DNA of 32,000 bases from assembly GCA_965230905.1 (NCBI GenBank), contig OZ246396.1, positions 210,001-242,000 on the forward strand. Reading direction: 5' to 3'. This document shows, piece after piece, positions 4,336 through 32,000 of this stretch. A program made the translations under genes and the position numbers. The number at the start of each line of letters is the position of its first letter. Position 1 is the first letter of the stretch. This DNA comes from Candidatus Saccharimonadota bacterium (GTDB taxonomy: Bacteria; Patescibacteriota; Gracilibacteria; UBA1369; 2-02-FULL-48-14). Below the pieces are notes generated by a model. The model was not told the DNA's origin. It was given only the letters and a program-made list of their open reading frames with translations, and searched no databases.

Positions 4336-4659
4336 ATGAGTCCAAAAGAACTCAAAAAAATCCAGCCGGTCATACAGAGAATCGTAGAAGGATATGCTCC
4401 ACAAAAAATCATCCTTTTTGGTTCTCGTGCTTGGGGTAACCCAACTGAGGACAGTGATTATGATTTTGTGATTGTTAAGAAAGGAAAAACTAAACGAAAT
4501 TATTTTAGTGAGTTAATGAAAGTACGGACACTGATTGGAGGTGAAGTTGCGGTGGATGTTTTACTCTACTCCCCAAGAGAATTTGCCAGTCGTGTAAAAG
4601 AGGGTGATCTCTTCTTAAGAAATATTGTTAAAAAAGGCGCGCTGCTTTATGAACAGTAA
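4336..4659 (+). CDS. Minimal nucleotidyltransferase (MNT/MntA-like), predicted antitoxin partner of the HEPN protein
   Basis: ILFGSRAWGNPTEDSDYDFVIV carries the GS...DxD polymerase-beta-type NTase motif. The protein is 107 aa. TATAAT at 4324-4329 lies only 6 nt before the ATG, so the transcript may be leaderless. Confidence 0.75.
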   Translation: MSPKELKKIQPVIQRIVEGYAPQKIILFGSRAWGNPTEDSDYDFVIVKKGKTKRNYFSELMKVRTLIGGEVAVDVLLYSPREFASRVKEGDLFLRNIVKKGALLYEQ

Positions 4660-5032
4660 ATTTATTAAAGAATGGATAAGAAAGGCTGAGAAGGATGAAT
4701 TTGCCTTAAAACACCTTCTACCTTTGGAAAAAGCAGCAGGGCATGCTTGTTTTCTATCCCAACAAGTGGCAGAAAAATACCTAAAGGCCTATCTAACTGC
4801 GAACGAATATTTGCCACCGAAAACACATCAACTTCTTGTCCTCCTCGATCTATGTGTAGAATTTTCAAAGGATTTTTCTTGCTTGAAGGAAGAGGCTGTC
4901 TTTCTAAGTGATTTTTACATCATCACTCGCTACCCTTCTGAACGACCTGACCCTACCCTTGAAGATGCCGAAAAAGCTTTTGAGATGGCTAGAAAATTTA
5001 AGGATATGGTTTTGAAGAAGTTGACCCTCTAA
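4649..5032 (+). CDS. HEPN domain protein (HepT-like), predicted toxin partner of the MNT protein
   Basis: It has a HEPN-like helical sequence (KYLKAYL...FYIITRYPSERPDP). The ATG at 4649 overlaps the MNT stop (4657-4659) by 11 nt. The track ORF begins earlier, at 4625. Confidence 0.7.
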   Translation: MNSKFIKEWIRKAEKDEFALKHLLPLEKAAGHACFLSQQVAEKYLKAYLTANEYLPPKTHQLLVLLDLCVEFSKDFSCLKEEAVFLSDFYIITRYPSERPDPTLEDAEKAFEMARKFKDMVLKKLTL

Positions 5033-5239: not shown

Positions 5240-7018
5240 ATGCATCAAGAACCTTCCGAAAAGCTCTCGCACATGCGGCACTCGCTCGCCCACCTTTTGG
5301 CAGCGGCCGTTATGGAAATGTGGCCAAACACTAAGCGGACCATTGGACCGGCTATTGATAACGGGTTTTATTTTGACTTTGAATTTGAGACGCCGATCAC
5401 GCAGGAGGATTTGCCAAAAATCGAGAAGAAGATGCGACAGATTCTGCCAACGTGGACGACTTTTGAACGAAGCGAGCTGAGCAAAGAAGAAGCAAAAAAA
5501 GAATTCGAAGGAAATGAATTCAAGTGCGAATTGATCGATGAATTTTCTAGCGAAGGGCAAACTTTGACGTTCTACAAATCGGGGAATTATTGGGACTTGT
5601 GCCGTGGAGGACACGTGGACAACATGAAAGCGGAGATCGATCCTAAATCGTTTAAATTGAGCAAAATCGCCGGTGCGTACTGGCGCGGGAGCGAGAAAAA
5701 TCCTCAGCTGACGCGTATTTATGGGCTCGCGTTTGAAACGCCGGAAGAGCTGGATGCGTATTTGAAAATGATGGAAGAAGCCGAAAAGCGTGACCACCGA
5801 AAACTCGGGAAGGAGTTGGAAATTTTTATGCTGAGTGAAGAAGTGGGTGCCGGCCTGCCACTATGGCTACCGAATGGAGCGATTGTGGTGGAGGAACTCG
5901 AAAAGCTGGCAAAGCAGGTGGAATTTGATGGCGATTACAAGCGCGTGCGCACGCCGCACATCACCAAGGGAAGTTTGTACCACAAGTCCGGGCATTTACC
6001 GTACTACGCGGAAACCATGTTTCCACCGATGGTGATGGACAACGAGGAGTATTACTTGAAGCCGATGAACTGCCCGCACCACCATTTGATTTATGGGAAC
6101 AAGACGCGGTCGTACCGTGACTTGCCGATTCGTCTCGCGGAATACGGGCACTGTTACCGTTACGAAGACAGTGGAGCTTTGTTCGGGCTCATGCGAGTGC
6201 GATCTTTGTGTATGAACGACGCGCATATTTATTGCCGTCCTGATCAATTTGAAGATGAGTTCATCAAAGTGATGGAACTTTATAAAAATTATTCCAAGAT
6301 TTTTGGTATCAAAAAAATGGTGATGCGACTTTCACTCCACAACGAAGAAGGGCTGGGAAAGAAATATGTGAACGAACCGGAACTCTGGATTCAAACGGAA
6401 GAACAAGTGCGCAATGCGATGATCAAAGCCGGTATCGATTTTGTGGAAGCGCCCGGTGAAGCCGCGTTTTATGGACCTAAGATTGATGTGGAAGTGTGGT
6501 CCGCCATTGGACGTGAATTCACGCTGGCCACGAACCAGCTCGACTTCGCGGTTCCTAAGCGCTTTGACCTCACCTACATAGACAGCGATGGACAAGAAAA
6601 AACTCCGCTCTGTGTGCACCGCGCGCCGCTGGGAACGCATGAACGTTTCGTAGGATTTTTGATTGAACATTTTGCCGGTGCCTTCCCCACTTGGCTCGCG
6701 CCCGTGCAGGCCATTGTGCTGCCGGTGTCCGACAAATTCTTGGACTACGCGCGTGAAGTGGAAGCCGCCCTCAAGGCCGCAAATGTGCGCGTGGAAACGG
6801 ACGACTCTGCCGAAAGCCTCGGTAAAAAAATCCGTGGCGCCGAGAAGCGTAAGATTCCTTGGATGCTGGTGGTGGGAGAACAGGAAGTGGCCGACAAAAC
6901 AGTGGCTGCCCGCAATTACCACACCAAAAAACAGGAACCCATTAAGCTGGATGCTTTTGTGCCGCAAGTGGCGGAGGAAATCCGAACACGTGCCCTGCCC
7001 GAAACGATGGAGGCTTAA
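5240..7018 (+). CDS. thrS: Threonine--tRNA ligase, short form lacking the TGS (N1) domain
   Basis: HMRHSLAHLLAAAVMEMWPNTKRTIGPAIDNGFYFDF (editing/SAD HxxxH), AGAYWRGSEKNPQLTRIYG, RDHRKLGKEL, NCPHHHLIY and the class II motifs are all present. The ATG at 5240 (MHQEPSEK) is preferred over the upstream track start at 5204. Confidence 0.95.
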   Translation: MHQEPSEKLSHMRHSLAHLLAAAVMEMWPNTKRTIGPAIDNGFYFDFEFETPITQEDLPKIEKKMRQILPTWTTFERSELSKEEAKKEFEGNEFKCELIDEFSSEGQTLTFYKSGNYWDLCRGGHVDNMKAEIDPKSFKLSKIAGAYWRGSEKNPQLTRIYGLAFETPEELDAYLKMMEEAEKRDHRKLGKELEIFMLSEEVGAGLPLWLPNGAIVVEELEKLAKQVEFDGDYKRVRTPHITKGSLYHKSGHLPYYAETMFPPMVMDNEEYYLKPMNCPHHHLIYGNKTRSYRDLPIRLAEYGHCYRYEDSGALFGLMRVRSLCMNDAHIYCRPDQFEDEFIKVMELYKNYSKIFGIKKMVMRLSLHNEEGLGKKYVNEPELWIQTEEQVRNAMIKAGIDFVEAPGEAAFYGPKIDVEVWSAIGREFTLATNQLDFAVPKRFDLTYIDSDGQEKTPLCVHRAPLGTHERFVGFLIEHFAGAFPTWLAPVQAIVLPVSDKFLDYAREVEAALKAANVRVETDDSAESLGKKIRGAEKRKIPWMLVVGEQEVADKTVAARNYHTKKQEPIKLDAFVPQVAEEIRTRALPETMEA

Positions 7019-10000
7019 TGCCCGCCGCCGTGCGTTGAGCCGTGTGAGCTTGGGCCACCTTCCGTGGGAGTGTGTCCTTCAGCGTGCGCGTCTCCGTGGC
7101 CGCCGTGGGCACCGTGACTTCCGTGAGCACCATGGTCGTCATGATGCGCGTGACCATGGTGATCTTCTACCAGTTTTCCACCTTCCATCTTCTTCGCAAA
7201 CTCCTGGCGGAAGTGTTTCATCTTGCCCTCACGTTCCTCTCGACGGGCGTGCGCGCTCTTCATCTTATCGATAGTTTCTTTGCTCTCTCCAGAAGCTATT
7301 GCAGCGGCTTTCATGGCTGCTATGTTAGCAGTGTGTTCGGCCTTCATAGTGTTGAGGTAATTTCGAATCGAAGGTTTACCATTTTTTATGGCGTAATCAA
7401 TATAGACACCGATGTTTTCATACAATTTATCCACGGTGGTGGGCAGTGGATTCTCAGCAAAAATTCCTGGGTAAGCGGCCAGCATATTCTGGGCAAAGGT
7501 GGCCGCCTCCGTATCGTTTTTAAACTCGTTGTTTATAAGTTTGCGGATCATTGGAAAGTTGCTGTCAAAATCCAACAAATGCAAATGCTGCTTCATGGTT
7601 TTTAAGTGGGCTCCTGTCGACATTTTTCCACGTCCATAGTAGAGACCGTAACCTCCAGCAGCACGAGGTTCCGCCTCACGCGTGGCGTTGCTCATGCGGT
7701 AATAATTCCCTTGGTTGGCGTAGATTCGTCCGGAGGTGATTCCATCAAAGGTCATGATGGTTTCCACTACGTTTGAAAGCGCTTTTTGTCCGGTGTCATC
7801 CGTGAATTCGTCGTAGCTTTCTGCCAGCGTATCCAGCGTGAAGAGCATACCCACCGTACCGTTTTGAACGGCGGTTTCTTGGAGTCCATATCCTTCGTTG
7901 TTGGCTTGCAACAAACGTTTAACCGTACTGCTATTGAGGTATCCGGCAAAGGCCGTGAAGTAGTCATGATCCAAACGCATACCTTGTGATTGCGCCTTCA
8001 CGAGACGTTGACGAACCTTTGGCAAGTACATCACGTGGCTGTGGAACCAATCCATGTATTCTTCTTTGTTCATCTCTGACCATTCCTGCACATCTTCCAG
8101 CACTGGTTTTTGACCACGCTTGGTGGGCGACGCAAAGATTTCAATGGCGGGATAGTTGTTGTTGAGACCGGTGAACACGGAACCACGTTCCAAGGGAAGC
8201 AGTCCTTTTCCAATTCCTTGAATGAGGTAGTAGAGCACGTCTTCGGCGTCCATTTTACCTTCCTTAATCGCGTAGAGGAGCACGGCTTCGTACTTCACCG
8301 GATCGGCGTCGGAGCCACCGTGTTTGGAAGGGTCTTCCAGATCTTTTAGGTATTCCGCCAAGATCGGTTTTATTTCGGATTCCAATCCACCCGTTTTTTC
8401 AGAAACTTCGGCGAATCGGGAACTGAATTTCCCTTTTTCACTTTCAATGGCGCTGGAGTTGCTGGTTCTCCAATTTTGGTACAAGTCTATATCTCCGTAG
8501 AGTAAGTTCACCCCTTTTTTAATGAGGTCTTCAGAACGCGCATTGTTGGACTGATGCCAGTGTCTACTGGCGGGAATAGGATAGGTGCTTTGCCATCGGT
8601 TCAATTGCAGCAAGAATCCTTCGTCGTCAAAACGCATACGTCCTTTTTTGGCCAACAATTCAATCACCGCACGGAACTCAAATTGGTTCGTGGTGTCGTG
8701 CATCACGTGAATGAGGTGGGACACTGGGGCATGATCGTGATTCTTCATCCATTCCTGGTAGTCGTTTGTTTCCGCGTGCTCCTGTTCAATGGCCATTTTT
8801 CCGGCAATTTCTTTCAAAGGCCGGAGCTGTTCTTCAAAAATCGGCGTGGGCAGTTTTTTAAGAAACTCGAAGGCCTTGCTTCCCCAAATACCCGCTTTAC
8901 GTTGGGTGTCACGATCGTAGTTTTTCTTAAATACATCCTGAATGGCGTGCGAAACGATTCCAAAGGTGGGACCGGGCGCGAGCCAGTAAATTTTGTAGCC
9001 CTTTTTTTTCTTACCTTGAGACGCCTGTTCTTCTTCAACCAGGGCGATTTTCTTAAGAATATCTGGGTATACGGTCTCTATGGATTTTTCGGCTCCGTTG
9101 ATCTGGCCTTCCAAGGCCTTGAGGGCGTCGCTGAAGCGGAACATCATGTGGTTTCGCTCGGTTTCACTGACGGGAACTTTGGAGATGAAATCCAACTGAC
9201 CTTTAAGACCCTTGGTGAGCACATGTTTGACCCCTCCATACTCCTTCCCTTCGGAGGCCGCTTCGGTGCTATTTAGAACATCGTCAATGACTGCATTGAG
9301 GTCACGGTTCTTTATAAGATGCTCTTTCAACTTTTCTATTTCCTTCACCACTTCAGGATCGGCTCCCTCGATTTGGGGCTTTATGGCTTCGATGCGGCTA
9401 AGGACTTCATCTATTTTTTGACGGTTTCTCGCCACCACTTCATCGGTGATTTTTGTCGTGCGAAGAGCTTCAATTCTCTGCAGCTCTTGCGCCAGTTTTG
9501 CTGGATTCAGACCGTGTGACTGCCCTTCTCGGTACAGATCCAGCGTGGTCTCCATGTTCCGGATTCCCTCCCACATGTTCCGTGCTTTTTCAAAAACACG
9601 AGACCCTTCAGGGAAGGCTGGATTTCTGGAATCGAAACGCTCGAGACGCTCCGATTCATCCATTATCTGTTCCGCTGCATGTATCCAATCAGCCGCTGCG
9701 GATTCATACCCAGGAGGAGGGTCCGCTTCCCATTCAACTTGAAACGCAATTAAGCGCCGTTGGAAGTCTTCAATCATCAGTTCACGAGTCACCCTGAGTG
9801 CGTCGGACCGCTTGTCCACCAGTTTTTGAATCACGTAATCTATGTCCGTCAGCACTTCGGAGGTTCGTGCTTGGTAATCGGCGGAGGTTTTTCTTTGCAG
9901 ATTTCCCCAGTCGATGTCCTGGCCTATGTTCATTCCTTGCAATCTCTCGATTTGCTGACGTCCAGCCAACATTTCTCGGTAAGCTCCTACGATTTTGTCT

Positions 10001-10368
10001 TTCAGTAAAGGCTTATCCTGCAAGTATTTAGGACTCTTGAGTTGGGTCTTTAACCTGATGAGTTTGTCGATTTCAATCTGCACCATGTTCACGGACCCCA
10101 ACTGGCTCAGCCAGTCGTCCATTACATCCTGATGTTCACCGGGCACGTACTCCGTGCGCTCGGGCACCCATTTTTTCATTTCTTTGTAAAATTCGCTCTC
10201 TCCCGGGGCATCTGCGCCACCCGAGTTGGGGCGTGGGGCCTCGGGGCCTTGAGAGGCTTGATCGGCGGTTCCATCATTTCCAGGATTGGCAAAAACCAGG
10301 ATGGACGCTCCTAGGAAGAGTTTTTTTTGGGTTTCCCGGTAATGGCTGTTGAATCCGTGGATCAGCAT
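7015..10368 (-). CDS. Orphan large secreted protein (~1117 aa) with a C-terminal His-rich tail; fifth gene of the orphan envelope cluster
   Basis: This is a long uninterrupted ORF. From the ATG at 10368 the N-terminus MLIHGFNSHYRETQKKLFLGASILVFANPG looks like a signal peptide. The track start (GTG at 10446) would add 26 aa. The body is mostly helical or coiled-coil. The tail reads HHGHAHHDDHGAHGSHGAHGGHGDAHAEGH...HGSTHGGGH. I recognise no family. Confidence 0.7.
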   Translation of the reverse strand: MLIHGFNSHYRETQKKLFLGASILVFANPGNDGTADQASQGPEAPRPNSGGADAPGESEFYKEMKKWVPERTEYVPGEHQDVMDDWLSQLGSVNMVQIEIDKLIRLKTQLKSPKYLQDKPLLKDKIVGAYREMLAGRQQIERLQGMNIGQDIDWGNLQRKTSADYQARTSEVLTDIDYVIQKLVDKRSDALRVTRELMIEDFQRRLIAFQVEWEADPPPGYESAAADWIHAAEQIMDESERLERFDSRNPAFPEGSRVFEKARNMWEGIRNMETTLDLYREGQSHGLNPAKLAQELQRIEALRTTKITDEVVARNRQKIDEVLSRIEAIKPQIEGADPEVVKEIEKLKEHLIKNRDLNAVIDDVLNSTEAASEGKEYGGVKHVLTKGLKGQLDFISKVPVSETERNHMMFRFSDALKALEGQINGAEKSIETVYPDILKKIALVEEEQASQGKKKKGYKIYWLAPGPTFGIVSHAIQDVFKKNYDRDTQRKAGIWGSKAFEFLKKLPTPIFEEQLRPLKEIAGKMAIEQEHAETNDYQEWMKNHDHAPVSHLIHVMHDTTNQFEFRAVIELLAKKGRMRFDDEGFLLQLNRWQSTYPIPASRHWHQSNNARSEDLIKKGVNLLYGDIDLYQNWRTSNSSAIESEKGKFSSRFAEVSEKTGGLESEIKPILAEYLKDLEDPSKHGGSDADPVKYEAVLLYAIKEGKMDAEDVLYYLIQGIGKGLLPLERGSVFTGLNNNYPAIEIFASPTKRGQKPVLEDVQEWSEMNKEEYMDWFHSHVMYLPKVRQRLVKAQSQGMRLDHDYFTAFAGYLNSSTVKRLLQANNEGYGLQETAVQNGTVGMLFTLDTLAESYDEFTDDTGQKALSNVVETIMTFDGITSGRIYANQGNYYRMSNATREAEPRAAGGYGLYYGRGKMSTGAHLKTMKQHLHLLDFDSNFPMIRKLINNEFKNDTEAATFAQNMLAAYPGIFAENPLPTTVDKLYENIGVYIDYAIKNGKPSIRNYLNTMKAEHTANIAAMKAAAIASGESKETIDKMKSAHARREEREGKMKHFRQEFAKKMEGGKLVEDHHGHAHHDDHGAHGSHGAHGGHGDAHAEGHTPTEGGPSSHGSTHGGGH

Positions 10369-10504
10369 AGCCGTGGGGTAAGTGATGCTGCTCCTGATTG
10401 GAGCGAGAGAGGCGAGTAGCTCAGGGGTTTCGGCTGGGCCGAACACTGGGCGGACTCACGTCTCACAATCACCTGCCTGGACGGATTGCGACCGTAGGAG
10501 GGAG

Positions 10505-10533
10505 ATTGTAACATCGTTATTTGTTTTTGTAAA
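10505..10533 (-). promoter_or_regulatory. Sigma70-like promoter for the His-tailed protein gene
   Basis: The minus strand reads TTTACA (10533-10528), a 17-nt spacer, then TACAAT (10510-10505). It lies in the ~100-180 nt gap after the upstream gene's stop (10549). Confidence 0.45.
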
Positions 10534-10548
10534 GTCATGGGGTTTTTA

Positions 10549-12798
10549 TCACATATGAGGAGCGGGCGCTGGCGGTGGGGTTGTTGTTGGAGGGGTTGTT
10601 GCTGGAGGGGTTGTTGCTGGAGGAGTTGCGGGTGGTGGCGTAACCGGAGCTGTAGGTGCTGGTGCTGCGGCGGGCGGTAAAGCTTCTACACGTGTTTTGA
10701 GAGCCTCCAAATCTCTGGTGAGTTGTGCATCGGCGGCAGCGGGTACAGCGGCAGTGGCAGCTGCCAACTGATCGGTGGCGGCTTTAAGTTGAGCAGCCGT
10801 TAGCCCTGCACCAGCCGTTTCAGCGGCGGCTACGGCACTTGTGAGAGCCGTAATACTGCCTCGCGCGGCGGTGATAGCGGCTTGAGTGGGAGGCGCTTGG
10901 ACGGTCGCGGGAGTGGTGACGACTTCTCCATTAAAGTTATTGGCGCTCTCTTTAATCGTGCTGTCTGTACTGCCGCTCAAGATTCCTAATTCTTCCCCTT
11001 TTCTATTGAGGATTGCCTTCAAAGGCTCAAAGCTTCTTTGTGAACCGTTGTCGTAACCTGTTTGGAGTTCTCTTACCTCTTTCAACAAGGCTTCTTTCTC
11101 AGAACCTTGCAAACTGGATTTCGCATCGATGGTGTTATATAGAGCCTTAGCTACGGCACTAAGGTCTGAACTCAGCATGTTACCATTGCCATCCCTTTTG
11201 GCTAAACTGTCTTCGATGGTGCGAGCATTCGTAACGGGATCCATAGTTCCTCGTGCACCACGGTCTCCCATAAGCATTTTTGCAATTGGGTTGGCGTTGG
11301 CCAGATTTTGCATCTCGGTGTCCACACCAGTTCCGTATTCAATGTTTCTCAAACCTTGATCGGCCAAACCTCTAAGCGCAGCAATGGACGTGAATTGATC
11401 TTCTCCATTTTTGACCCCAATTGGAACTGTTGGAAGCAGCGTGGGCGCTTTAACAGCGGCGTCACGGATTCGTTCTCCAAAGCCTTTAATGGCGTCGGTG
11501 GCGAAACTGGCGTAGGTGTCGCTGGCGGCGGCAAATACTCCGGTCCACACAATCACGATGCTCGCGATGGCGATGATGAATTGAGGCAGGCTGTCTATTC
11601 CGCTGATTAAGAATTCCGTAGAAATCACTTGGTCGGCCTGGAAACCTCCTCCAGCTAAGGCGGCGTTTCCGGCGAGTCCGCTCCAAGCGGCGATCATGAT
11701 GTAACCCAAGCTCATGGTCGCTCCAATGATCACGGGAGCCATGAGGTGTTTGAGAATTTTTTGAGCAAAGTCGCCTCCCCCTCCGGTCCATTCTTTAATT
11801 TGAGGAACCACATAGGTGAGCACCGCCAAAGGCGAGAGCGCCAGGGCGATCCACAGCACCACCAAACGGGTGATGAGCACAATGCCCAGCACCACATAAG
11901 AAGTGGCAAAAACCAGATACATCATTACGGAGAAAAGGAAGCTCACCGTCAACTCTTCAAAGCTGTCGATGGCGTCCGCTTTCAATATAGACAGGTTGCT
12001 GAGCCCTCCCATGTTCACCGCCATGATGAGTCCAATGTTGTTGGAATTCATATCGGTGAAGTATTTGGCGGCCAGCAGTCCATCGAGCTCGTCGTAGGTT
12101 CCAGTCTCTTCATCTTTATCACAGAACAACCTGGTATAAATGGGGACATCTTTTTCGGCGTCCACGTCGGCATCCCAGGAATCGTGGCTTCCGTCTTCAT
12201 TCAACTGTTTATAACAGACCTTCACCTGGAATTCCGTTTTCACGGCACTGAAGTCGTAGGGCGTGGCGTCGGTGGCGGCCAGCTCGGGCAGGGCAAACAC
12301 AGCGGTGGTGGCCACATTGGTGAGGTCCAAAACCACCTTTCCGGCAATGAACGTGAAGTTCACCACAACGAGTCCCAGCACGATTTTAGGCAGAGCCGTT
12401 TTGAGGGCCAAGTCCCCTTCTCCTCCTCCAATTCCGAGCACGTTGTAAAAGGCGACCACCAGGAGCACGAGCACAAATCCAATGTTCACCAGGTCACGAA
12501 CGGGGATCCAAATACCCTTCAAACGCTCCTCCATTCCCGGCCCCAAAATGAGGTCGGTGTCCATAAGGTCTCCAATAACAATGAGCACGGGCCAGAGTAG
12601 GGCGTTCAAAAATTGCATCACAACCGAGAGGAGTTCTGCAATGACTTGCACCACATCTTCCCCAGTATCAGAGGCTGCCGCTTCAGTGGCGGCTTGGGCG
12701 AGGTCTGGGATCAAGGTAGAACCCAGCGCAGCCACCAGCACCAGCATGAAAGCTTTGCTTTTGATTAAATTCAGGAATATTCGTGTGAGTATCTTCAT
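10549..12798 (-). CDS. Orphan polytopic membrane protein (~749 aa) with a signal peptide, ~8 TM segments, an Ala-rich coiled region and a Pro/Thr-rich C-terminal tail
   Basis: From the ATG at 12798: MKILTRIFLNLIKSKAFMLVLVAALGSTLIPDLAQAA is signal-like. Hydrophobic segments follow (LVNIGFVLVLLVVAF, IVLGLVVVNFTFIAG, LTVSFLFSVMMYLVFATSYVVLGIVLITRLVVLWIALAL, FIIAIASIVIVWTGVFAAA). The tail is PPAAAPAPTAPVTPPPATPPATTPPATTPPTTTPPPAPAP. The start overlaps the upstream stop as TAATG. Confidence 0.75.
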   Translation of the reverse strand: MKILTRIFLNLIKSKAFMLVLVAALGSTLIPDLAQAATEAAASDTGEDVVQVIAELLSVVMQFLNALLWPVLIVIGDLMDTDLILGPGMEERLKGIWIPVRDLVNIGFVLVLLVVAFYNVLGIGGGEGDLALKTALPKIVLGLVVVNFTFIAGKVVLDLTNVATTAVFALPELAATDATPYDFSAVKTEFQVKVCYKQLNEDGSHDSWDADVDAEKDVPIYTRLFCDKDEETGTYDELDGLLAAKYFTDMNSNNIGLIMAVNMGGLSNLSILKADAIDSFEELTVSFLFSVMMYLVFATSYVVLGIVLITRLVVLWIALALSPLAVLTYVVPQIKEWTGGGGDFAQKILKHLMAPVIIGATMSLGYIMIAAWSGLAGNAALAGGGFQADQVISTEFLISGIDSLPQFIIAIASIVIVWTGVFAAASDTYASFATDAIKGFGERIRDAAVKAPTLLPTVPIGVKNGEDQFTSIAALRGLADQGLRNIEYGTGVDTEMQNLANANPIAKMLMGDRGARGTMDPVTNARTIEDSLAKRDGNGNMLSSDLSAVAKALYNTIDAKSSLQGSEKEALLKEVRELQTGYDNGSQRSFEPLKAILNRKGEELGILSGSTDSTIKESANNFNGEVVTTPATVQAPPTQAAITAARGSITALTSAVAAAETAGAGLTAAQLKAATDQLAAATAAVPAAADAQLTRDLEALKTRVEALPPAAAPAPTAPVTPPPATPPATTPPATTPPTTTPPPAPAPHM
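10574..10633. repeat. Degenerate 15-bp tandem repeat (about 4 units) inside the Pro/Thr-tail coding region
   Basis: ggaggggttgttgct occurs at 10589-10603 and again at 10604-10618. Degenerate copies flank it: ggtggggttgttgtt (10574-10588) and ggaggagttgcgggt (10619-10633). On the minus strand these encode PATTP-type repeats. Confidence 0.6.
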
Positions 12799-14003
12799 TA
12801 TGTGAATAAGGTGACGTGAGTTACGAACAGGCTTGAACCCGTGAGGGCCGCTACTAAACCACCGATGATTCCGGCGCCGGCTCCCGCCCCTTTGGCGAGT
12901 TTCTTTTGGTCGGCGCTCCATCGAGCTTTTTTAGCTTTTTGAACATTTGCCTCTTGTTTATAAACCACTTGTTGCATGGTTTTATTTCGGGCGGCGCGGT
13001 CGGCTTCATGCTGCTGCGCTTGTTGAAGAGCCTGAGTTTGGCGCGCGAAGCGCGCTGCCATGGCTGCCTTTGCCGCCATAACATTGGGCACAGCCCCGCC
13101 TTCCCTATGCATGAGCGGTTGCTCAATGCTGGCTTGCGCTAGCGCCGCCGCTTCTCTGGCCCGTTGTTCGGGCGAAGCGTGATGCTTGGCTTCCTGCATC
13201 GCGAGCATGGTCAAACCCGTAGCCAATAAGGCTCCTGCAGCTGGGTTGTTCTTTGAAGATTGCATAACTAGACCCCGGGTCACGGCTTCTTGAGTGGGTC
13301 TTTGCAGAGATTTGTCTTCTTGCGCTTCCCCATACTCCTCAAAGAGCTGAGTTTCTGAGATGTGCTTTTCCTTTCCGTTTTTATCAATCTGTTTGTAGTC
13401 AAAAGGACGAGTGGCTTCTTGATCCACCACCACCTCATACTTCAAGTTGTTTGCATCCTCCGCCTCTACGTTGCTGGCGGTTCGGTTCACTTCCACCTGC
13501 ACCACTCCGTTTTTGAGGACAGCGTTTTTAACGGACCAAATGGTTTTTTCAGCTCCGTTCAGGGCGGTGAAATTCTCGTTCATGTTCTTCACCACATACA
13601 ATAAGGTTTGTTCTTCCACGACTTCCACCAGGTTGGTGGTGCTGTTTCGGAACGTGGGCGACTTGATTGTATAGTTGAGCGGCTGCGCTTGGCGGGCTTC
13701 TTGCAAAGTGAGGAATTGATCAAAAGTCTTTCCTTCATCCGTGCTCACCAATAAGAGTTGCTGACGCTTAGCCAAGGTGATCAGTTCTTTCTTTTTCGCT
13801 TCGTCCACTGGGCGGGCATCGATCAAAACCAGTAGTTCCTTTTCCACTTTTTTCGAGAGGTGCTCACTGAAACGCTGTGTCACTTCCTCCTTTCCCCAGG
13901 TGTAGAGCACGGCTTTATTTTCCTCCGCAAATTCAGCGTAGGCCTGCGCGTAGGGCGCTTCCAGATGCTGAGGATCGAATTGGTTTTGAGTGTCTAAAAA
14001 CAT
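12798..14003 (-). CDS. Orphan tail-anchored protein (401 aa), third gene of the cluster
   Basis: The ORF has an ATG at 14003, 3 nt after the upstream stop. It has a soluble N-terminal part, an Ala/Gln-rich helical region and a C-terminal hydrophobic anchor, GAGAGAGIIGGLVAALTGSSLFVTHVTLFT. I recognise no family. Confidence 0.7.
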   Translation of the reverse strand: MFLDTQNQFDPQHLEAPYAQAYAEFAEENKAVLYTWGKEEVTQRFSEHLSKKVEKELLVLIDARPVDEAKKKELITLAKRQQLLLVSTDEGKTFDQFLTLQEARQAQPLNYTIKSPTFRNSTTNLVEVVEEQTLLYVVKNMNENFTALNGAEKTIWSVKNAVLKNGVVQVEVNRTASNVEAEDANNLKYEVVVDQEATRPFDYKQIDKNGKEKHISETQLFEEYGEAQEDKSLQRPTQEAVTRGLVMQSSKNNPAAGALLATGLTMLAMQEAKHHASPEQRAREAAALAQASIEQPLMHREGGAVPNVMAAKAAMAARFARQTQALQQAQQHEADRAARNKTMQQVVYKQEANVQKAKKARWSADQKKLAKGAGAGAGIIGGLVAALTGSSLFVTHVTLFT

Positions 14004-14006
14004 TTT

Positions 14007-15623
14007 TTAAGCTTTGTAAATGAAGGGATCTAAGGGGGCGTAGCTCATAACGGTTTGACTCACTTCGGCACGAGCTTTTTCAATGAAGGCACGTTGAGCG
14101 GCGCCGTCTGTGGTTTTTTGTCCTCTTTCTCCCTCAATGAGGGCAAGGTCTGAAGCCCACTCAGAAATCTTGGCTTCCAGATTGTTTCGCTGTTCCCACA
14201 AAGGTCTAAAATCTGGAGGAAGGTCCTCTTTTTTGTTGATTCCAATATCGGCCAGCGTCACCGGCACGGTGGAATCCAAGAATTTCTCTTTTTTAGCCTT
14301 ATGAACCATGGCAATGCGCTCGGCAAAGTTGGCGTAAAAGTGAGATTCCTCCCAGTAATTGTTCAAATCGGCTTTCATAACCACGGTGTGCTCCGCCATG
14401 CGGTCATCGGCTTCTTCGTTGTCGTCTTTAAGCACTTTGGCACCCATGCCTTCCGGCGTAGACATCAATCCTGCAAGTCCATCGGACATTTGCAAACCGA
14501 CTCCCACTTGAGCGACTCCCAACCAGAGGGCGGGGTTCATCGGAATATCCAACGGGTCGTGGAGTCCCATCAGTACGTTGGCGACCACGGTCATTCCTCC
14601 GTTCACGGTGAGCGCCAGAGATCCAAGTCTCTCCCCGGTCATCAGTTCGCGAGCCCTGTTTTTGTGGCCCACTTGGCGGGTGCTGTAGTATTCCGAAGCA
14701 TCAGCCCGGATTTCCATAGCTATTTTTTGTGTTTTCTTCATGCTTTCTCCGTTCACGGTGGCCAGGGTTTCTTTCAGTTTTTCGGTTTCTTCGGCGAACT
14801 TTCGGTCTTCCCCGAGCTTGCTGATTCGCAGATTCAAGGCTTCCGTGGCCTGTAAAACGGTCACATAGGTAGACCCAACCATGCTCAAAACCACTTGGTC
14901 GAAATCGGGGAAAGAGGCTTCTTCCGCCATTTTAGTGAGCAGGGCGGTACGGTCGGCAGGCGTGAGCACTCCCAGCACTATCATCAAGGAGCTTTGCTCG
15001 ATGGTGTTTTGATTGCCTCCCAGCTTGCGCACTCGATCCACCAGTTCTTTCAAATCCTCTGGGCTGAGCGGCTCTTTATCTCTGATTTTTTCCAGCATGC
15101 TGTAATAATCCGGAGGGAATTGACCTCCCACGCTTTCCAGGTAACTGGCCTGCATGGGCTGAGGTAAAGCCTGAAACACCAAGTCGGAAACGTTCATGCG
15201 TTCGATCAAGGTGCTGACTTCGCGGAGTTTGGCCAACTCAGTGTCGGAGGAAACGGTTTTATCTCCCTGCAGGCTGGTTTCGTACTGCATCGCAGCGATT
15301 TCTATCATGAGCTCAGCTCGTTTCGTAATGAAGCCAAAGGCGGTTTCTTGGGCTAGCAGCAATTGGTTGCGTTCCACCTCATCCAATTCCCCCAACTGAG
15401 TGGCCACTTTGTCTCTGATTTCTCGAGTAACTTCTTCGGCCTTACTCCCCAGGGTCACCTTGATGCTGTTTTCCGCCAATTCTCCCCAATCGGAGGAAGC
15501 TCGTTCAAACCAAGCCATTTTTTGCTCAAAGGTGCTTTCCAAGCCTTTTACGGCTTTGGCTTGCTGCGCGTCTAGCTTTCGCTCAAACGCTTCTTGTGGA
15601 TCGTACTGTGGGAGTTCAGACAT
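14007..15623 (-). CDS. Orphan coiled-coil protein (538 aa) with a central hydrophobic hairpin, second gene of the cluster
   Basis: The ORF has an ATG at 15623, 2 nt after the upstream stop. The hydrophobic stretch is LGSLALTVNGGMTVVANVLMGL...ALWLGVAQVGVGLQ. I recognise no family. Confidence 0.7.
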   Translation of the reverse strand: MSELPQYDPQEAFERKLDAQQAKAVKGLESTFEQKMAWFERASSDWGELAENSIKVTLGSKAEEVTREIRDKVATQLGELDEVERNQLLLAQETAFGFITKRAELMIEIAAMQYETSLQGDKTVSSDTELAKLREVSTLIERMNVSDLVFQALPQPMQASYLESVGGQFPPDYYSMLEKIRDKEPLSPEDLKELVDRVRKLGGNQNTIEQSSLMIVLGVLTPADRTALLTKMAEEASFPDFDQVVLSMVGSTYVTVLQATEALNLRISKLGEDRKFAEETEKLKETLATVNGESMKKTQKIAMEIRADASEYYSTRQVGHKNRARELMTGERLGSLALTVNGGMTVVANVLMGLHDPLDIPMNPALWLGVAQVGVGLQMSDGLAGLMSTPEGMGAKVLKDDNEEADDRMAEHTVVMKADLNNYWEESHFYANFAERIAMVHKAKKEKFLDSTVPVTLADIGINKKEDLPPDFRPLWEQRNNLEAKISEWASDLALIEGERGQKTTDGAAQRAFIEKARAEVSQTVMSYAPLDPFIYKA

Positions 15624-15625
15624 GT

Positions 15626-16126
15626 TTAGTTCAGGCGAAGGATACGGACCAGAGCATCGAGGAAAGTGAGTTGTTTCCCTTCCTGTTCAGGAATTTGTGT
15701 AACCAGAAATTGACGAACCGTGGCTGGATTCATTCCCATCAAGGGAATCACCACTTCAGGATGCGATTTTCGATTGGTCATCAGGTGAAGTTCATCGGTC
15801 ATGGGCGGGTTGTGCAACACGGCAAAAGCCTTGAGGCTGCTGTAAGGCAAACGCAGCACGCCAAATTTCACCCCGTAAGGCGAGAAAATAACCTGCACGG
15901 CCTTGGGTTTTTTGCGGTGTTCCAGCAAAAGCACCAGCGGCAAGACGATAAACACCACCATCATGGTGATGGAACCAGTGAAAAATGCGTAGGCGACCAA
16001 GGCTCCGTTCAGCAAGATCAGGAGGGCGAACCAGAGTCGTCCACGCTCGAAGCGCATAAACTCAGGGGCCATCCATCCCAAAACCACTTCGTCGAACGCA
16101 GCAGCTGGGGTGTTTTCGTATGCCAT
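15626..16126 (-). CDS. Small membrane protein (166 aa; two N-terminal TM helices plus a C-terminal soluble domain), first gene of the cluster
   Basis: MAYENTPAAAFDEVVLGWMAPEFMRFERGRLWFALLILLNGALVAYAFFTGSITMMVVFIVLPLVLLL is followed by a beta-rich ~90 aa domain. It sits directly downstream of a promoter. Confidence 0.7.
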   Translation of the reverse strand: MAYENTPAAAFDEVVLGWMAPEFMRFERGRLWFALLILLNGALVAYAFFTGSITMMVVFIVLPLVLLLEHRKKPKAVQVIFSPYGVKFGVLRLPYSSLKAFAVLHNPPMTDELHLMTNRKSHPEVVIPLMGMNPATVRQFLVTQIPEQEGKQLTFLDALVRILRLN

Positions 16127-29363: not shown

Positions 29364-29448
29364 AATTTTTTGTTAGTGCGGGCGCATTCTAACAAAGCTT
29401 GCGCAGCGTGCCTAGTCCATGAAATAGTAGGGCCAATTTCAGCCTTAA

Positions 29449-30723
<1,275 letters not shown>

Positions 30724-30752
30724 CAGGAGCAAACTCGCCTTTGGCGAGCAAT

Positions 30753-31122
30753 CAAAAACCGACTTTTCTCTCGAGGACTCAGGCGCTAATTTCTGAGCGC
30801 TGGCCTCATGGTGAGGGAAAGGTCGGTTCTGTGAATGGTGACGAACTCCATTCTGTTTTTGTTTTTCATCTGCTGTACTTCGGTCGATTTTATGGCCGGA
30901 CCGGGGCTGTCCTTGGCGTGGATACAGGTCACTGTGCCGAAGCAGGGAGTGAAAGCAAGAACCACAGAACGATACGAGAGTCTTTCTCTCTCATGGGTGA
31001 TCTAGTCGAGACCACCAGCGTAAAGCAGAGCCGTTTAAGGTAAAGTAACTTTTGTCCCAAAGGGACCTACGTGTTTTTGTCTGAGTTTTGAATGGGCGGT
31101 GAAACGTTTTGTTTTTGCGTTT
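30753..31122 (-). ncRNA. Candidate ~370 nt minus-strand RNA, copy A (promoter to terminator; family unknown)
   Basis: Promoter TTGATA (31157-31152), 17-nt spacer, TATATT (31134-31129). Terminator: the 70-nt hairpin at 30758-30827, whose base ACCGAC/GTCGGT is followed on the minus strand by UUUU (30757-30754). No minus-strand ORF is conserved between the copies. Confidence 0.4.
30835..31005 (+). CDS. Candidate small hydrophobic peptide, copy A (56 aa; speculative)
   Basis: ATG 30835 to TAG 31005 encodes MVTNSILFLFFICCTSVDFMAGPGLSLAWIQVTVPKQGVKARTTERYESLSLSWVI. It is below the track cutoff. A 34-codon core is shared with copy B. Confidence 0.2.
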   Translation: MVTNSILFLFFICCTSVDFMAGPGLSLAWIQVTVPKQGVKARTTERYESLSLSWVI

Positions 31123-31248
31123 CATACCAATATACGTGGCGATGTACCGCTTATCAAGTTTCTGTCGTGGACATGAACACAAAATTGTTTCAGGGTAGAT
31201 TGTTTTTACCTGAAAGGGCATAGCCTTCTAGATAAACTTTCCGGACAA

Positions 31249-31639
31249 TAAAAAAACCGACTTTTCTCTCGAGGACTCAGGCGCCAATTTCGGGCGCTGG
31301 CCTCATAGTGAGGGAAAGGTCGGTTCTGTGAAAGGCGATGAACTCTTTCTATTTTTATTTTTCATCTACTGTACTTTGGTCGACTTTAGGGCCGGACCGG
31401 GGCTACTCTTGGCGTGGATACTAGTCACTGTGCCGAAGCAGGGAATGAAACGAGATCCACAGAGTGGAGGGTGAGAGTCTGAGTCTCGTGGGCAATCCAA
31501 TCAGGATCACCAGGGTAAAGTAGAAGCCGTTGAAGGTAAAAGAACTTTTTGTTTCTGTTTCGATTTTTGAATGAGCGGTGAAACGTTGCTTATTCTGTGT
31601 TGGCGCCGTCGTGTCCCGTTGGCGTCGACTTCAGCGTTT
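31249..31639 (-). ncRNA. Candidate ~390 nt minus-strand RNA, copy B
   Basis: Promoter TTGATA (31674-31669), 17-nt spacer, TATATT (31651-31646). The hexamers and spacing match copy A, while 6 of 17 spacer bases differ. Terminator hairpin at 31256-31324, followed on the minus strand by a run of U (31255-31250). Confidence 0.4.
31328..31474 (+). CDS. Candidate small hydrophobic peptide, copy B (48 aa; speculative)
   Basis: GTG 31328 to TGA 31474 encodes MKGDELFLFLFFIYCTLVDFRAGPGLLLAWILVTVPKQGMKRDPQSGG. GAGGGAAAGG lies 8 nt upstream of the GTG. Confidence 0.2.
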   Translation: MKGDELFLFLFFIYCTLVDFRAGPGLLLAWILVTVPKQGMKRDPQSGG

Positions 31640-31796
31640 CAAATCAATATACGTGCCGCGGCATGGCTTATCAAGTTTCTGTAATGGACTTGAATAAGAA
31701 ATTGTTTCAGCTTGGCTAATTTTAATCTGGAGTGGTATTTTGATTTTCTTGCTAAAAAAAGTATTTTAATTCATAATTTGGGAGCCTTAACCCGTT

Positions 31797-32000
31797 ATGA
31801 CCACCTTCTCACTCTTCGATATAGCTGGTCCAATCATGGTGGGCCCCTCCAGTTCTCATACTGCCGGGGCAGCTAAAATAGGTCAGTTTGCGAGAGCGAT
31901 TTTTGATGCAACTCCTACTAAGGTGCACTTTTTGCTGCACGGATCTTTTGGAGAAGTATATAAAGGGCATGCTACGGATCGGGCACTTTTGGGAGGCGTT
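31797..32000 (+). CDS. sdaAB: L-serine dehydratase, iron-sulfur-dependent, beta subunit (5' part; continues beyond the window)
   Basis: MTTFSLFDIAGPIMVGPSSSHTAGAAKIGQFARAIF...HGSFGEVYKGHATDRALLGG matches the SdaAB N-terminus (SVFDIIGPVMIGPSSSHTAGA...YGSFAETYKGHGTD). Confidence 0.9.
   Translation, partial: MTTFSLFDIAGPIMVGPSSSHTAGAAKIGQFARAIFDATPTKVHFLLHGSFGEVYKGHATDRALLGGV

Follow-up and report, generated by a model that had tools for sequence, protein, structure and literature searches.

Between the genes eno (enolase) and sdaAB on contig OZ246396.1 of a Candidatus Saccharimonadota bacterium lies a gap that is filled by two head-to-tail units, each of about 498 bp, and the question arises what these units encode. 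In the stretch of 32,000 nt that was analyzed and is called the window in the following, the gap spans positions 30724-31797; loci from relatives carry labels of the type L0xx. A preliminary description of this DNA had seen in the units a candidate unclassified RNA gene in two copies, located on the minus strand and about 370-390 nt long. The predicted lengths agree with that estimate (Table 1), our results support the reading as such, and none of the contrary observations named in advance was made wherever they were looked for. Each unit very probably specifies a transcribed, structured noncoding RNA (ncRNA) on the minus strand, as judged from conserved sequence signals and covariation, and the RNA family is new as far as Rfam 15 and the searched literature show.

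The head-to-tail arrangement had been recognized from the hexamer ACCGAC, which is indeed present at 30758 and again at 31256. Global alignment of the two units, as proposed at the time, gave 83% identity over 463 aligned columns. Similarity is unevenly distributed: about the first 200 nt on the plus strand, of which some 190 nt had been called near-identical by eye, are approximately 90% identical, and they are followed by an indel-rich stretch and then by a conserved island around a promoter-like site, again in line with what had been described. 15-mers and 21-mers from the core of the unit occur exactly twice in the 32-kb window, compared with an expectation of at most 0.04.

A folded core with covarying helices

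Loci of relatives were gathered via enolase homologs, from GTDB species genomes with a core pattern and from metagenomes of the Joint Genome Institute (JGI) with a degenerate pattern. About 30 distinct copies of the unit were collected, 27 of which are full length. RNAalifold was run on 8, 23 and 27 sequences and returned the same fold each time. In this consensus, the long-range helix H1 closes a core that holds H2, H3, the compound arm H4-H5-H6 with a C(UUCG)G cap, and H8; an A-rich single strand, a small hairpin (hairpin 2) and the terminator follow on the 3' side. In the alignment of 23 sequences, 26 of the 57 pairs exhibit double changes, as opposed to 4-8 when the pairing partners are slid against each other, and 97.3% of the cells are paired (33-48% after sliding). 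For the core in the alignment of 27 sequences, compensatory double changes are found in 25 out of 40 pairs (4-9 after sliding) and 98.4% of the cells are paired (33-48% after sliding). In both alignments, none of 500 shuffles reached the observed score.

Compensatory changes beyond those attributable to phylogeny and composition, the generic hallmark of structured ncRNAs, are thus present. Neutral decay of the homologous loci without covariation had been named as an observation that would speak against an RNA gene; instead, these loci covary strongly. The compensatory swaps originally pointed out between the two window copies (T:A to C:G in the apical closing pair and T:A to A:T in hairpin 2) are there and recur as covarying pairs in multiple species. 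As the sequences are related and in part paralogous, cell counts overstate the number of independent events, and the support for the structure derives from stacked runs of pairs together with the slide control and not from isolated pairs. A search for pseudoknots or extra helices by pairwise covariation left 170 isolated pairs that passed the filter, mostly attributable to phylogenetic hitch-hiking, and no consecutive runs. A covariance model of the core (163 positions), also proposed in the preliminary description, scores copy 1 with 171 bits and copy 2 with 180 bits. It yields 113-184 bits on all complete homologs, exclusively on the RNA strand, and its matches in the window are the two known copies only.

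Helix H4 occurs in two variants, GUUCU/AGGAC and ACUCU/AGAGU, which are linked by compensatory changes and coexist across the family as well as within the window (30970-30963/30918-30909 and 31465-31458/31414-31405). The variants do not sort strictly by locus position, and a strict A/B paralog model was therefore rejected. Such a distribution could go back to an ancient duplication, with occasional gene conversion between paralogs.

When sequences are folded singly, the strands cannot be told apart, with z-scores of -2.0 to -2.9 on both, and the alifold prediction made for either strand favors that very strand, which is circular. Counts were thus based on shared helices and on the consensus of 23 sequences. 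In its helices, 116 cells are G-U and pair only on the minus strand, whereas 10 cells are A·C on that strand and pair only on the plus strand; the proportion of paired cells drops from 97% to 89% when the helices are read on the plus strand. The C(UUCG)G loop of the minus strand is changed to UCCG in one of the L004 copies (L004_A), which still conforms to UNCG. Taken together, the G-U and A·C counts, the UNCG loop, the promoter and the covarying hairpin at +1 identify the minus strand of the window as the sense strand. The caveat had been raised earlier that folding on the plus strand was also possible. The two A·C mismatches in the basal stem of the terminator hairpin on which it was based are real and are found in most copies, but overall the minus strand prevails. 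What the mismatches point to, at most, is an additional use of this particular hairpin on the plus strand, e.g., for ending eno transcripts, and it is conceivable that the 3' module doubles as a terminator for the convergently transcribed eno gene.

Promoter, predicted transcript ends and single-stranded tracts

The bounds of both predicted transcripts were set by a conserved promoter and a terminator. A promoter scan reports the claimed TTGATA-17-TATATT site in both copies, and by our own count 6 of the 17 spacer bases differ between them. Loss of the hexamers in homologs would have spoken against this promoter; however, TTGnnn-16/17-TAnnnT is kept in 27/27 full-length homologs while the sequence of the spacer is scrambled. 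Among these copies, the -35 element reads TTGATA, TTGAAA, TTGCAC, TTGCAA or has other variants, and the -10 element is TATATT, TACAAT, TATAAT or, again, a further variant. For the eight closest copies, measuring from AGAAAC across -35 element, spacer and -10 element to GAAACGC gives exactly 47 nt each time although the spacer is essentially randomized. Near-consensus hexamers, a spacing of 16-18 nt and a freely varying spacer, as expected of a sigma-70-type promoter, are all found. The block upstream of it belongs to a direct-repeat family (D2); it is 75% identical between the two copies, and its columns are conserved across species. We infer that it is a candidate regulator-binding or UP region.

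At the predicted +1 position, a 5' hairpin begins in nearly all copies. Its loop accommodates inserts, from 0 to about 60 nt long, that in some cases contain a hairpin themselves, as does the 49-nt insert enclosed in copy 2. The stem covaries as a whole helix and reads GAAACG/CGUUUC in the majority of copies, GAAUUC/GAAUUC in L022 and L029 and GAUUUC/GAAAUC in L021 and L031. Further downstream, a 5' tract of at least four A-R-N triplets is found in 23 of the 27 RNAs. Copy 2 is among the RNAs with such a tract (Table 1), and copy 1 merely has the shorter ACAAAAACA at this position. Across all copies, the predicted RNA lengths range from 329 to 417 nt.

Located 3' of the core, GAUG-AAAAAYAAAAAYARAA is present in every RNA, and all its A positions are invariant in 27/27 sequences. 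The substitutions that do occur, C/U at two positions and G/A at one, affect the N and R positions of (A-R-N)5-7. The tract is unpaired in minimum free energy as well as centroid folds. On average, an RNA contains 1.9 A-R-N tracts, compared with 0.15 in shuffles. The 70-nt hairpin with an adjacent U run that had been claimed for the 3' end was found, and a long hairpin followed by U4-7 is present in every 3'-complete copy. Its basal stem of 9 bp covaries, one pair for example being AU in 13 and GC in 12 sequences. At the level of sequence, a stem and a U-tract on the transcribed strand point at an intrinsic terminator. A simple terminator scan did not flag the 3' hairpin, presumably because it is 70 nt long and internally looped. 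On the plus strand of copy 1, a T-run (TGTTTTTGTTTTT) comes after hairpin 2, which may also end eno transcripts on that strand.

Distribution and conservation of the family

Matches to a profile of the whole unit and to the covariance model were obtained only in genomes of the Candidatus Peribacteria/Peregrinibacteria type, which belong to the Candidate Phyla Radiation (CPR), and Peregrinibacteria are also the nearest named relatives according to enolase. All syntenic loci of relatives contain the unit. It always resides between eno and sdaAB, to both of which the predicted RNA is antisense, and there are either one or two copies per genome. A single copy is present in L010, L018, L021, L029, L031 and L051 and also in L008, where it is located 5' of a YHYH gene that abuts sdaAB. 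Two tandem copies occur in the window, L009, L046 and L053, two copies about 190 nt apart in L050, a closed genome of 1.34 Mb, and two copies with an SLH/YHYH gene in between in L004 and L037. The SLH/YHYH-domain gene (Table 1) is absent from the window and present in some relatives, so that the tandem arrangement in the window reflects its loss or that in the other genomes its gain. Each window copy is closer to a different L004 copy than to the other window copy, and the duplication thus predates these species. Specifically, the copy 2 unit shows 90.5% identity with the sdaAB-proximal copy of L004 over its first 295 nt on the plus strand, which correspond to the 3' portion of the RNA, and the eno DNA of L004 is 78.8% identical to that of the window. 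Sequence comparison indicates that this is a lineage-wide family and not a local duplication.

The family is rare, since the metagenome scan gave six stretches only, two of which were already in the collection. Pattern matches in high-GC Actinobacteria and Proteobacteria were dismissed as chance because neither the whole unit nor the covariance model matched there. The same holds true for a pattern match in L052, which lies inside an open reading frame (ORF) of 678 codons (678 aa). Contigs L002 and L003 end about 60 bp after eno, and L005, L006, L007 and L042 end inside the unit. Assemblies break inside the unit because both local copies have a 33-nt exact repeat in common, and as a consequence many of the public contigs from this lineage end just 3' of eno.

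In three lineages, genes on the RNA strand start 19-30 nt after the U-tract, too close to accommodate a separate promoter. These genes encode a GNAT acetyltransferase (L004 and L005), a Mem_trans transporter (L007) and a PMSR methionine sulfoxide reductase (L051), and look like insertions that are expressed by terminator read-through from the RNA promoter.

Between the window and eleven other genomes, nucleotide identity of the RNA core is 78-91%. In the same genomes, identities for eno DNA amount to 68-79% and those for sdaAB/sdaAA to 69-83%. A noncoding core that is more conserved than the DNA of enolase is indicative of purifying selection, which, going by these identities, is stronger on the predicted RNA family than on the neighboring enolase gene. 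The earlier statement that the units share no long ORF stands insofar as indels shift the frame between the copies; it needs the amendment that both strands do contain short ORFs, 44-59 aa in length, which overlap with the best-conserved stretch. These were rejected as genes. They are by-products of the high identity, and in L008 the core has lost single nucleotides at two separate places. The unit is not a multicopy mobile element either, which would likewise have contradicted the original reading: it occupies a single syntenic locus and has no match in viral contigs, phage genomes and plasmids.

Comparison with known RNA families

The suggested Rfam search was run on both strands of the window with the 4227 models of Rfam 15, which include RNase P, transfer-messenger RNA (tmRNA), signal recognition particle (SRP) RNA, 6S, T-box, riboswitches, CrcZ, OLE, raiA, ROOL and GOLLD. 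It yielded no match at the gathering threshold. Admitting E values up to 10 brought up sR15 (15 bits) and Xist_exon1 (14 bits) and nothing else, both far below threshold, and six divergent homologous loci searched at E values up to 1 gave nothing relevant. ARAGORN did not detect any tmRNA in the window; its sole match is a tRNA-Arg that lies outside the RNA gene. Literature searches did not reveal any ncRNA described for the Peribacteria lineage, and the Peribacteria genome paper mentions none.

Individual families were also considered and rejected. For tmRNA, ARAGORN finds no tRNA-like domain, and a conserved ORF is lacking in the RNA. The consensus fold consists of a multi-branched core and separate hairpins and has no rod as expected for 6S RNA. 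P4 of RNase P RNA is built from a CR-I strand on the 5' side and a CR-V strand on the 3' side and has universally conserved nucleotides; the strings resembling it stand in reversed order and form a simple hairpin stem that varies and covaries between homologs. Look-alikes of SRP domain IV were compared with the E. coli sequences and are wrong in order and conservation. A cis-regulatory leader does not fit because the majority of copies, both window copies among them, are not followed by a gene on the RNA strand; only three lineages have one.

The closest functional analogy is offered by CrcZ, CrcY and CrcX of Pseudomonas, which are small RNAs (sRNAs) that act as sponges by titrating Hfq. The distal face of Hfq binds (A-R-N)n motifs, and AAnAAnAA motifs make CrcZ-type RNAs Hfq sponges. 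The RNA from Peribacteria resembles this group in its length of about 350-400 nt, its own promoter and intrinsic terminator, the occurrence of paralogous copies in some genomes and the single-stranded A-rich AAnAAnAA or (A-R-N)n motifs. On the other hand, similarity is lacking at the level of sequence and covariance model, only one or two A-rich tracts are present compared with five or six in CrcZ, and there is a large covarying multi-helix core, which, to our knowledge, sponge RNAs do not possess. In kind, the RNA comes closest to the raiA motif RNA, OLE, ROOL and GOLLD. Like these, it is long and lineage-restricted, has multiple helices with covariation and invariant junction nucleotides, and its function cannot be deduced from sequence. 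It differs from them in having no match to the Rfam models, in its narrower distribution (a single CPR lineage) and in its fixed single locus, theirs being variable or prophage-associated. With bacterial RNase P RNA it shares the size, a multi-helix junction, conservation above that of neighboring protein genes and short P4-like strings; however, the universally conserved nucleotides are not kept, the covariance model does not match and up to two copies are present. 6S RNA is similar as an sRNA of the abundant housekeeping type whose gene has a promoter and a terminator of its own and occurs as two paralogs in some bacteria, but 6S RNA is a rod of about 180 nt with a central bubble, and the Peribacteria RNA has twice that length and a multi-branched fold. 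It does not belong to any of these families.

Possible function and alternative explanations

As a whole, the observations are best explained by a stand-alone gene for a structured ncRNA, which may function in trans by binding protein or serving as a scaffold. According to this model, the sigma-70-type promoter would start transcription about 6 nt downstream, at the G of the conserved GAAAC. The RNA would open with the insert-tolerant 5' hairpin (0-60 nt) and continue with an A/C-rich single-stranded linker. Next would come the H1-closed core with its four hairpin arms, one of them UUCG-capped, and invariant junction nucleotides, and the invariant single-stranded tract, the small hairpin and the long terminator hairpin with its U-tract would complete the molecule. 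The (A-R-N)n tracts could provide a docking site for a protein that binds single-stranded RNA, much as in the Hfq-titrating sponge RNAs, and the folded core could provide a second, specific binding surface. By analogy with the Crc RNAs, this sponge or scaffold mechanism may be put forward tentatively. More speculative still is the idea that the core goes beyond passive titration and forms a lineage-specific ribonucleoprotein (RNP) subunit, an RNA sensing serine or pyruvate as ligand, or a ribozyme, i.e., a class unique to Peribacteria-type CPR. If this were true, such a role would be important enough in minimal genomes to account for conservation above that of enolase and for two copies in many species.

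Several points weigh against a trans-acting structured RNA. Transcript and transcript ends are predicted, the proposed function is read from the resemblance of motifs, Hfq or a comparable partner protein is postulated for this lineage, and a literature search on Hfq in CPR bacteria brought up nothing informative. The 5' tract seems dispensable, given that one of the L004 copies (L004_B) is devoid of the whole 5' linker and that copy 1 has only a short tract. The A-tract on the 3' side is the complement of the T-run on the plus strand that may end eno transcripts, and its conservation could in part serve that purpose. About 20 species are represented, and covariation of isolated pairs is clearly inflated by shared ancestry. 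Finally, the strict linkage to sdaAB could be a sign of a local rather than a trans function.

This linkage is what an alternative builds on according to which the RNA shares a regulatory region with a divergent operon (the sdaAB-sdaAA-PFOR genes or the YHYH/SLH gene) and serine catabolism is controlled by the RNA or by the act of transcribing it, either in cis or in the role of a dedicated partner. Indeed, every genome has one copy that is divergent from sdaAB and located about 150 nt from its start codon, the separated copies in L004 and L037 are each divergent from the start of a plus-strand gene, YHYH or sdaAB, and a conserved block lies between the divergent promoters. Synteny, however, is to be expected by descent within one narrow lineage whose enolase proteins are 73-100% identical. 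The upstream copy of the tandem arrays (window, L009, L046 and L053) is equally conserved without an adjacent operon, the RNA does not overlap sdaAB, no extended complementarity to the sdaAB leader was found, and the 160-nt multi-helix core exceeds the needs of transcription interference. We therefore regard such a locus-specific regulator as unlikely. The three lineages in which GNAT, Mem_trans or PMSR genes follow the U-tract at a distance of 19-30 nt could be taken to indicate a long 5' leader or attenuator whose terminator hairpin controls read-through into a gene that follows on the RNA strand. For the window, as for the majority of genomes, the terminator instead faces the convergent 3' end of eno or the next RNA copy, and the three downstream genes are mutually unrelated, which looks like opportunistic insertion behind a strong promoter and renders an attenuator highly improbable.

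Very unlikely is also a strongly diverged housekeeping RNA (RNase P RNA, tmRNA, SRP RNA or 6S RNA) that was missed by the standard models. Size and conservation above enolase would be compatible with RNase P RNA or tmRNA, and ACAGAACCGACCUU and GAAAAGUCGG look like the two strands of P4 in the E. coli M1 sequence of RNase P RNA; yet Rfam and ARAGORN yielded neither a match nor a tmRNA, the P4-like stem has the wrong order and covaries freely (AAAAGUCGG to AAGGGUCGG and GGAGGCCGG), ACAGAA is replaced by ACGAAA and UCUAGA, two copies per genome would be unusual, and the multi-branched fold bears no likeness to the rod of 6S RNA. It is scarcely to be expected that the plus strand is the functional one, with the unit serving as a 3' untranslated region or terminator module of eno or as a plus-strand RNA and the minus-strand promoter being incidental. 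The two basal-stem positions that are G-U on the plus and A·C on the minus strand in most copies, the T-run after hairpin 2 and the comparable z-score for folding would agree with this. It conflicts with the cell counts given above and leaves the promoter with its scrambled spacer and the covarying +1 hairpin unexplained. Moreover, the second copies in tandem arrays do not follow any plus-strand gene, and a G+T-rich composition inflates G-U pairing on this strand by itself. Least probable of all is a repeat, a mobile element or a small protein-coding gene: the frequent assembly breaks inside the unit, which might point to the former, are explained by the 33-nt exact repeat, the element occupies a single syntenic locus, and the short ORFs that overlap the conserved stretch are themselves unconserved and interrupted by 1-nt indels in the core.

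CPR bacteria or Patescibacteria make up a large share of bacterial diversity and have tiny genomes. With its size, its complex covarying fold, a conservation above that of a glycolytic enzyme and no match among 4227 Rfam families, the RNA is of the kind of large orphan RNAs that have previously proved to be ribozymes, RNP scaffolds or global regulators. With predicted promoter, +1 position, terminator and secondary structure as well as a covariance model at hand, the trans-acting RNA proposed here is a well-bounded target for metatranscriptomics, structure probing and cryo-electron microscopy. Novelty applies to the RNA family, and its mechanism may well prove analogous to that of known sponge or scaffold RNAs.

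Features of the locus and neighboring sequences

Table 1. Predicted features of the two RNA genes in the window and of adjacent genes in the window and in loci of relatives.
Feature	Sequence	Position	Strand	Remarks
ncRNA gene, copy 1	window	30754-31123	minus	370 nt; predicted +1 G31123; 3' end in U-tract 30754-30758
ncRNA gene, copy 2	window	31250-31640	minus	391 nt; predicted +1 G31640; U-tract 31250-31256
Promoter, copy 1	window	31129-31157	minus	-35 TTGATA 31157-31152; 17-nt spacer; -10 TATATT 31134-31129; promoter scan
Promoter, copy 2	window	31646-31674	minus	TTGATA-17-TATATT; promoter scan
Conserved block 5' of promoter, copy 1	window	31158-31221	minus	RNA sense CTGAAACAATTT-N-GTTCA-N-GTCCAC-N-CAGAAAC
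Conserved block 5' of promoter, copy 2	window	31675-31738	minus	matches block of copy 1; between RNA promoter and divergent sdaAB promoter
5' hairpin, copy 1	window	31101-31123	minus	starts at +1; GAAACG 31123-31118 pairs with CGUUUC 31106-31101
5' hairpin, copy 2	window	31580-31640	minus	GAAACG 31640-31635 pairs with CGUUUC 31585-31580
5' single-stranded (A-R-N)5 tract, copy 2	window	31545-31559	minus	AACAGAAACAAAAAG
Structured core, copy 1	window	30869-31029	minus	RNAalifold consensus
Helix H1, copy 1	window	31029-31020/30878-30869	minus	
Helix H2, copy 1	window	31016-31009/31003-30996	minus	
Helix H3, copy 1	window	30992-30989/30981-30978	minus	
Helix H4, copy 1	window	30970-30963/30918-30909	minus	
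Helix H5, copy 1	window	30952-30948/30933-30929	minus	
Helix H6, copy 1	window	30944-30941/30938-30935	minus	UUCG loop
Helix H8, copy 1	window	30902-30899/30885-30882	minus	
Structured core, copy 2	window	31365-31524	minus	H1 31524-31515/31374-31365
3' single-stranded tract, copy 1	window	30852-30870	minus	GAUG-AAAAACAAAAACAGA = (A-R-N)5
3' single-stranded tract, copy 2	window	31342-31366	minus	GAUG-AAAAAUAAAAAUAGAAAGAGU = (A-R-N)7
Hairpin 2, copy 1	window	30833-30853	minus	five pairs, two with double changes
Hairpin 2, copy 2	window	31330-31349	minus	from sequence and alignment
Terminator, copy 1	window	30754-30830	minus	three-tier hairpin; basal stem 30830-30822/30763-30755; then U5
Terminator, copy 2	window	31250-31327	minus	three-tier hairpin; then U7
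eno (enolase)	window	29458-30723	plus	convergent with RNA copy 1
Promoter-like site for sdaAB	window	31749-31777	plus	TTGCTA-17-CATAAT; promoter scan; divergent from RNA copy 2; outside RNA, given as context
GNAT acetyltransferase gene	L004	6321-6893	minus	after RNA terminator
GNAT acetyltransferase gene	L005	7200-7772	minus	after RNA terminator
Mem_trans transporter gene	L007	2258-3199	minus	after RNA terminator
PMSR methionine sulfoxide reductase gene	L051	9331-9843	minus	after RNA terminator
SLH/YHYH-domain gene	L004	7493-8902		
SLH/YHYH-domain gene	L037	675-2081		
SLH/YHYH-domain gene	L008	11868-12854		

The promoter-like site for sdaAB is situated 20 nt 5' of the start codon and is conserved in L004 (L004_B) and L010. 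Its presence implies that the RNA gene and sdaAB are divergently transcribed, with promoters about 75 nt apart. On the other side of the units, between the stop codon of eno and the first unit, a small hairpin CTCGCC-TTT-GGCGAG is located at 30737-30751, with a U-rich stretch (UUUGCUCCUGUUAUUU) after it on the minus strand. This hairpin may serve the RNA as a back-up terminator or be a piece of the eno 3' end.

Upstream of eno, the spacer that separates it from a divergent lactB-like gene (29364-29457) is 90-97% identical across species and thereby exceeds the flanking coding DNA. It holds a perfect inverted repeat, TTTGTTAG-N12-CTAACAAA (29369-29376/29389-29396), that may constitute an operator or a leader hairpin. 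At a greater distance, five consecutive large ORFs (1143, 790, 401, 538 and 166 aa) occupy positions 7015-16126 of the minus strand and have no match in Pfam at E values up to 1e-5. The plus strand encodes a stand-alone HEPN-domain protein of 135 aa at 4625-5032; proteins of this kind are often part of a toxin-antitoxin or defense pair.

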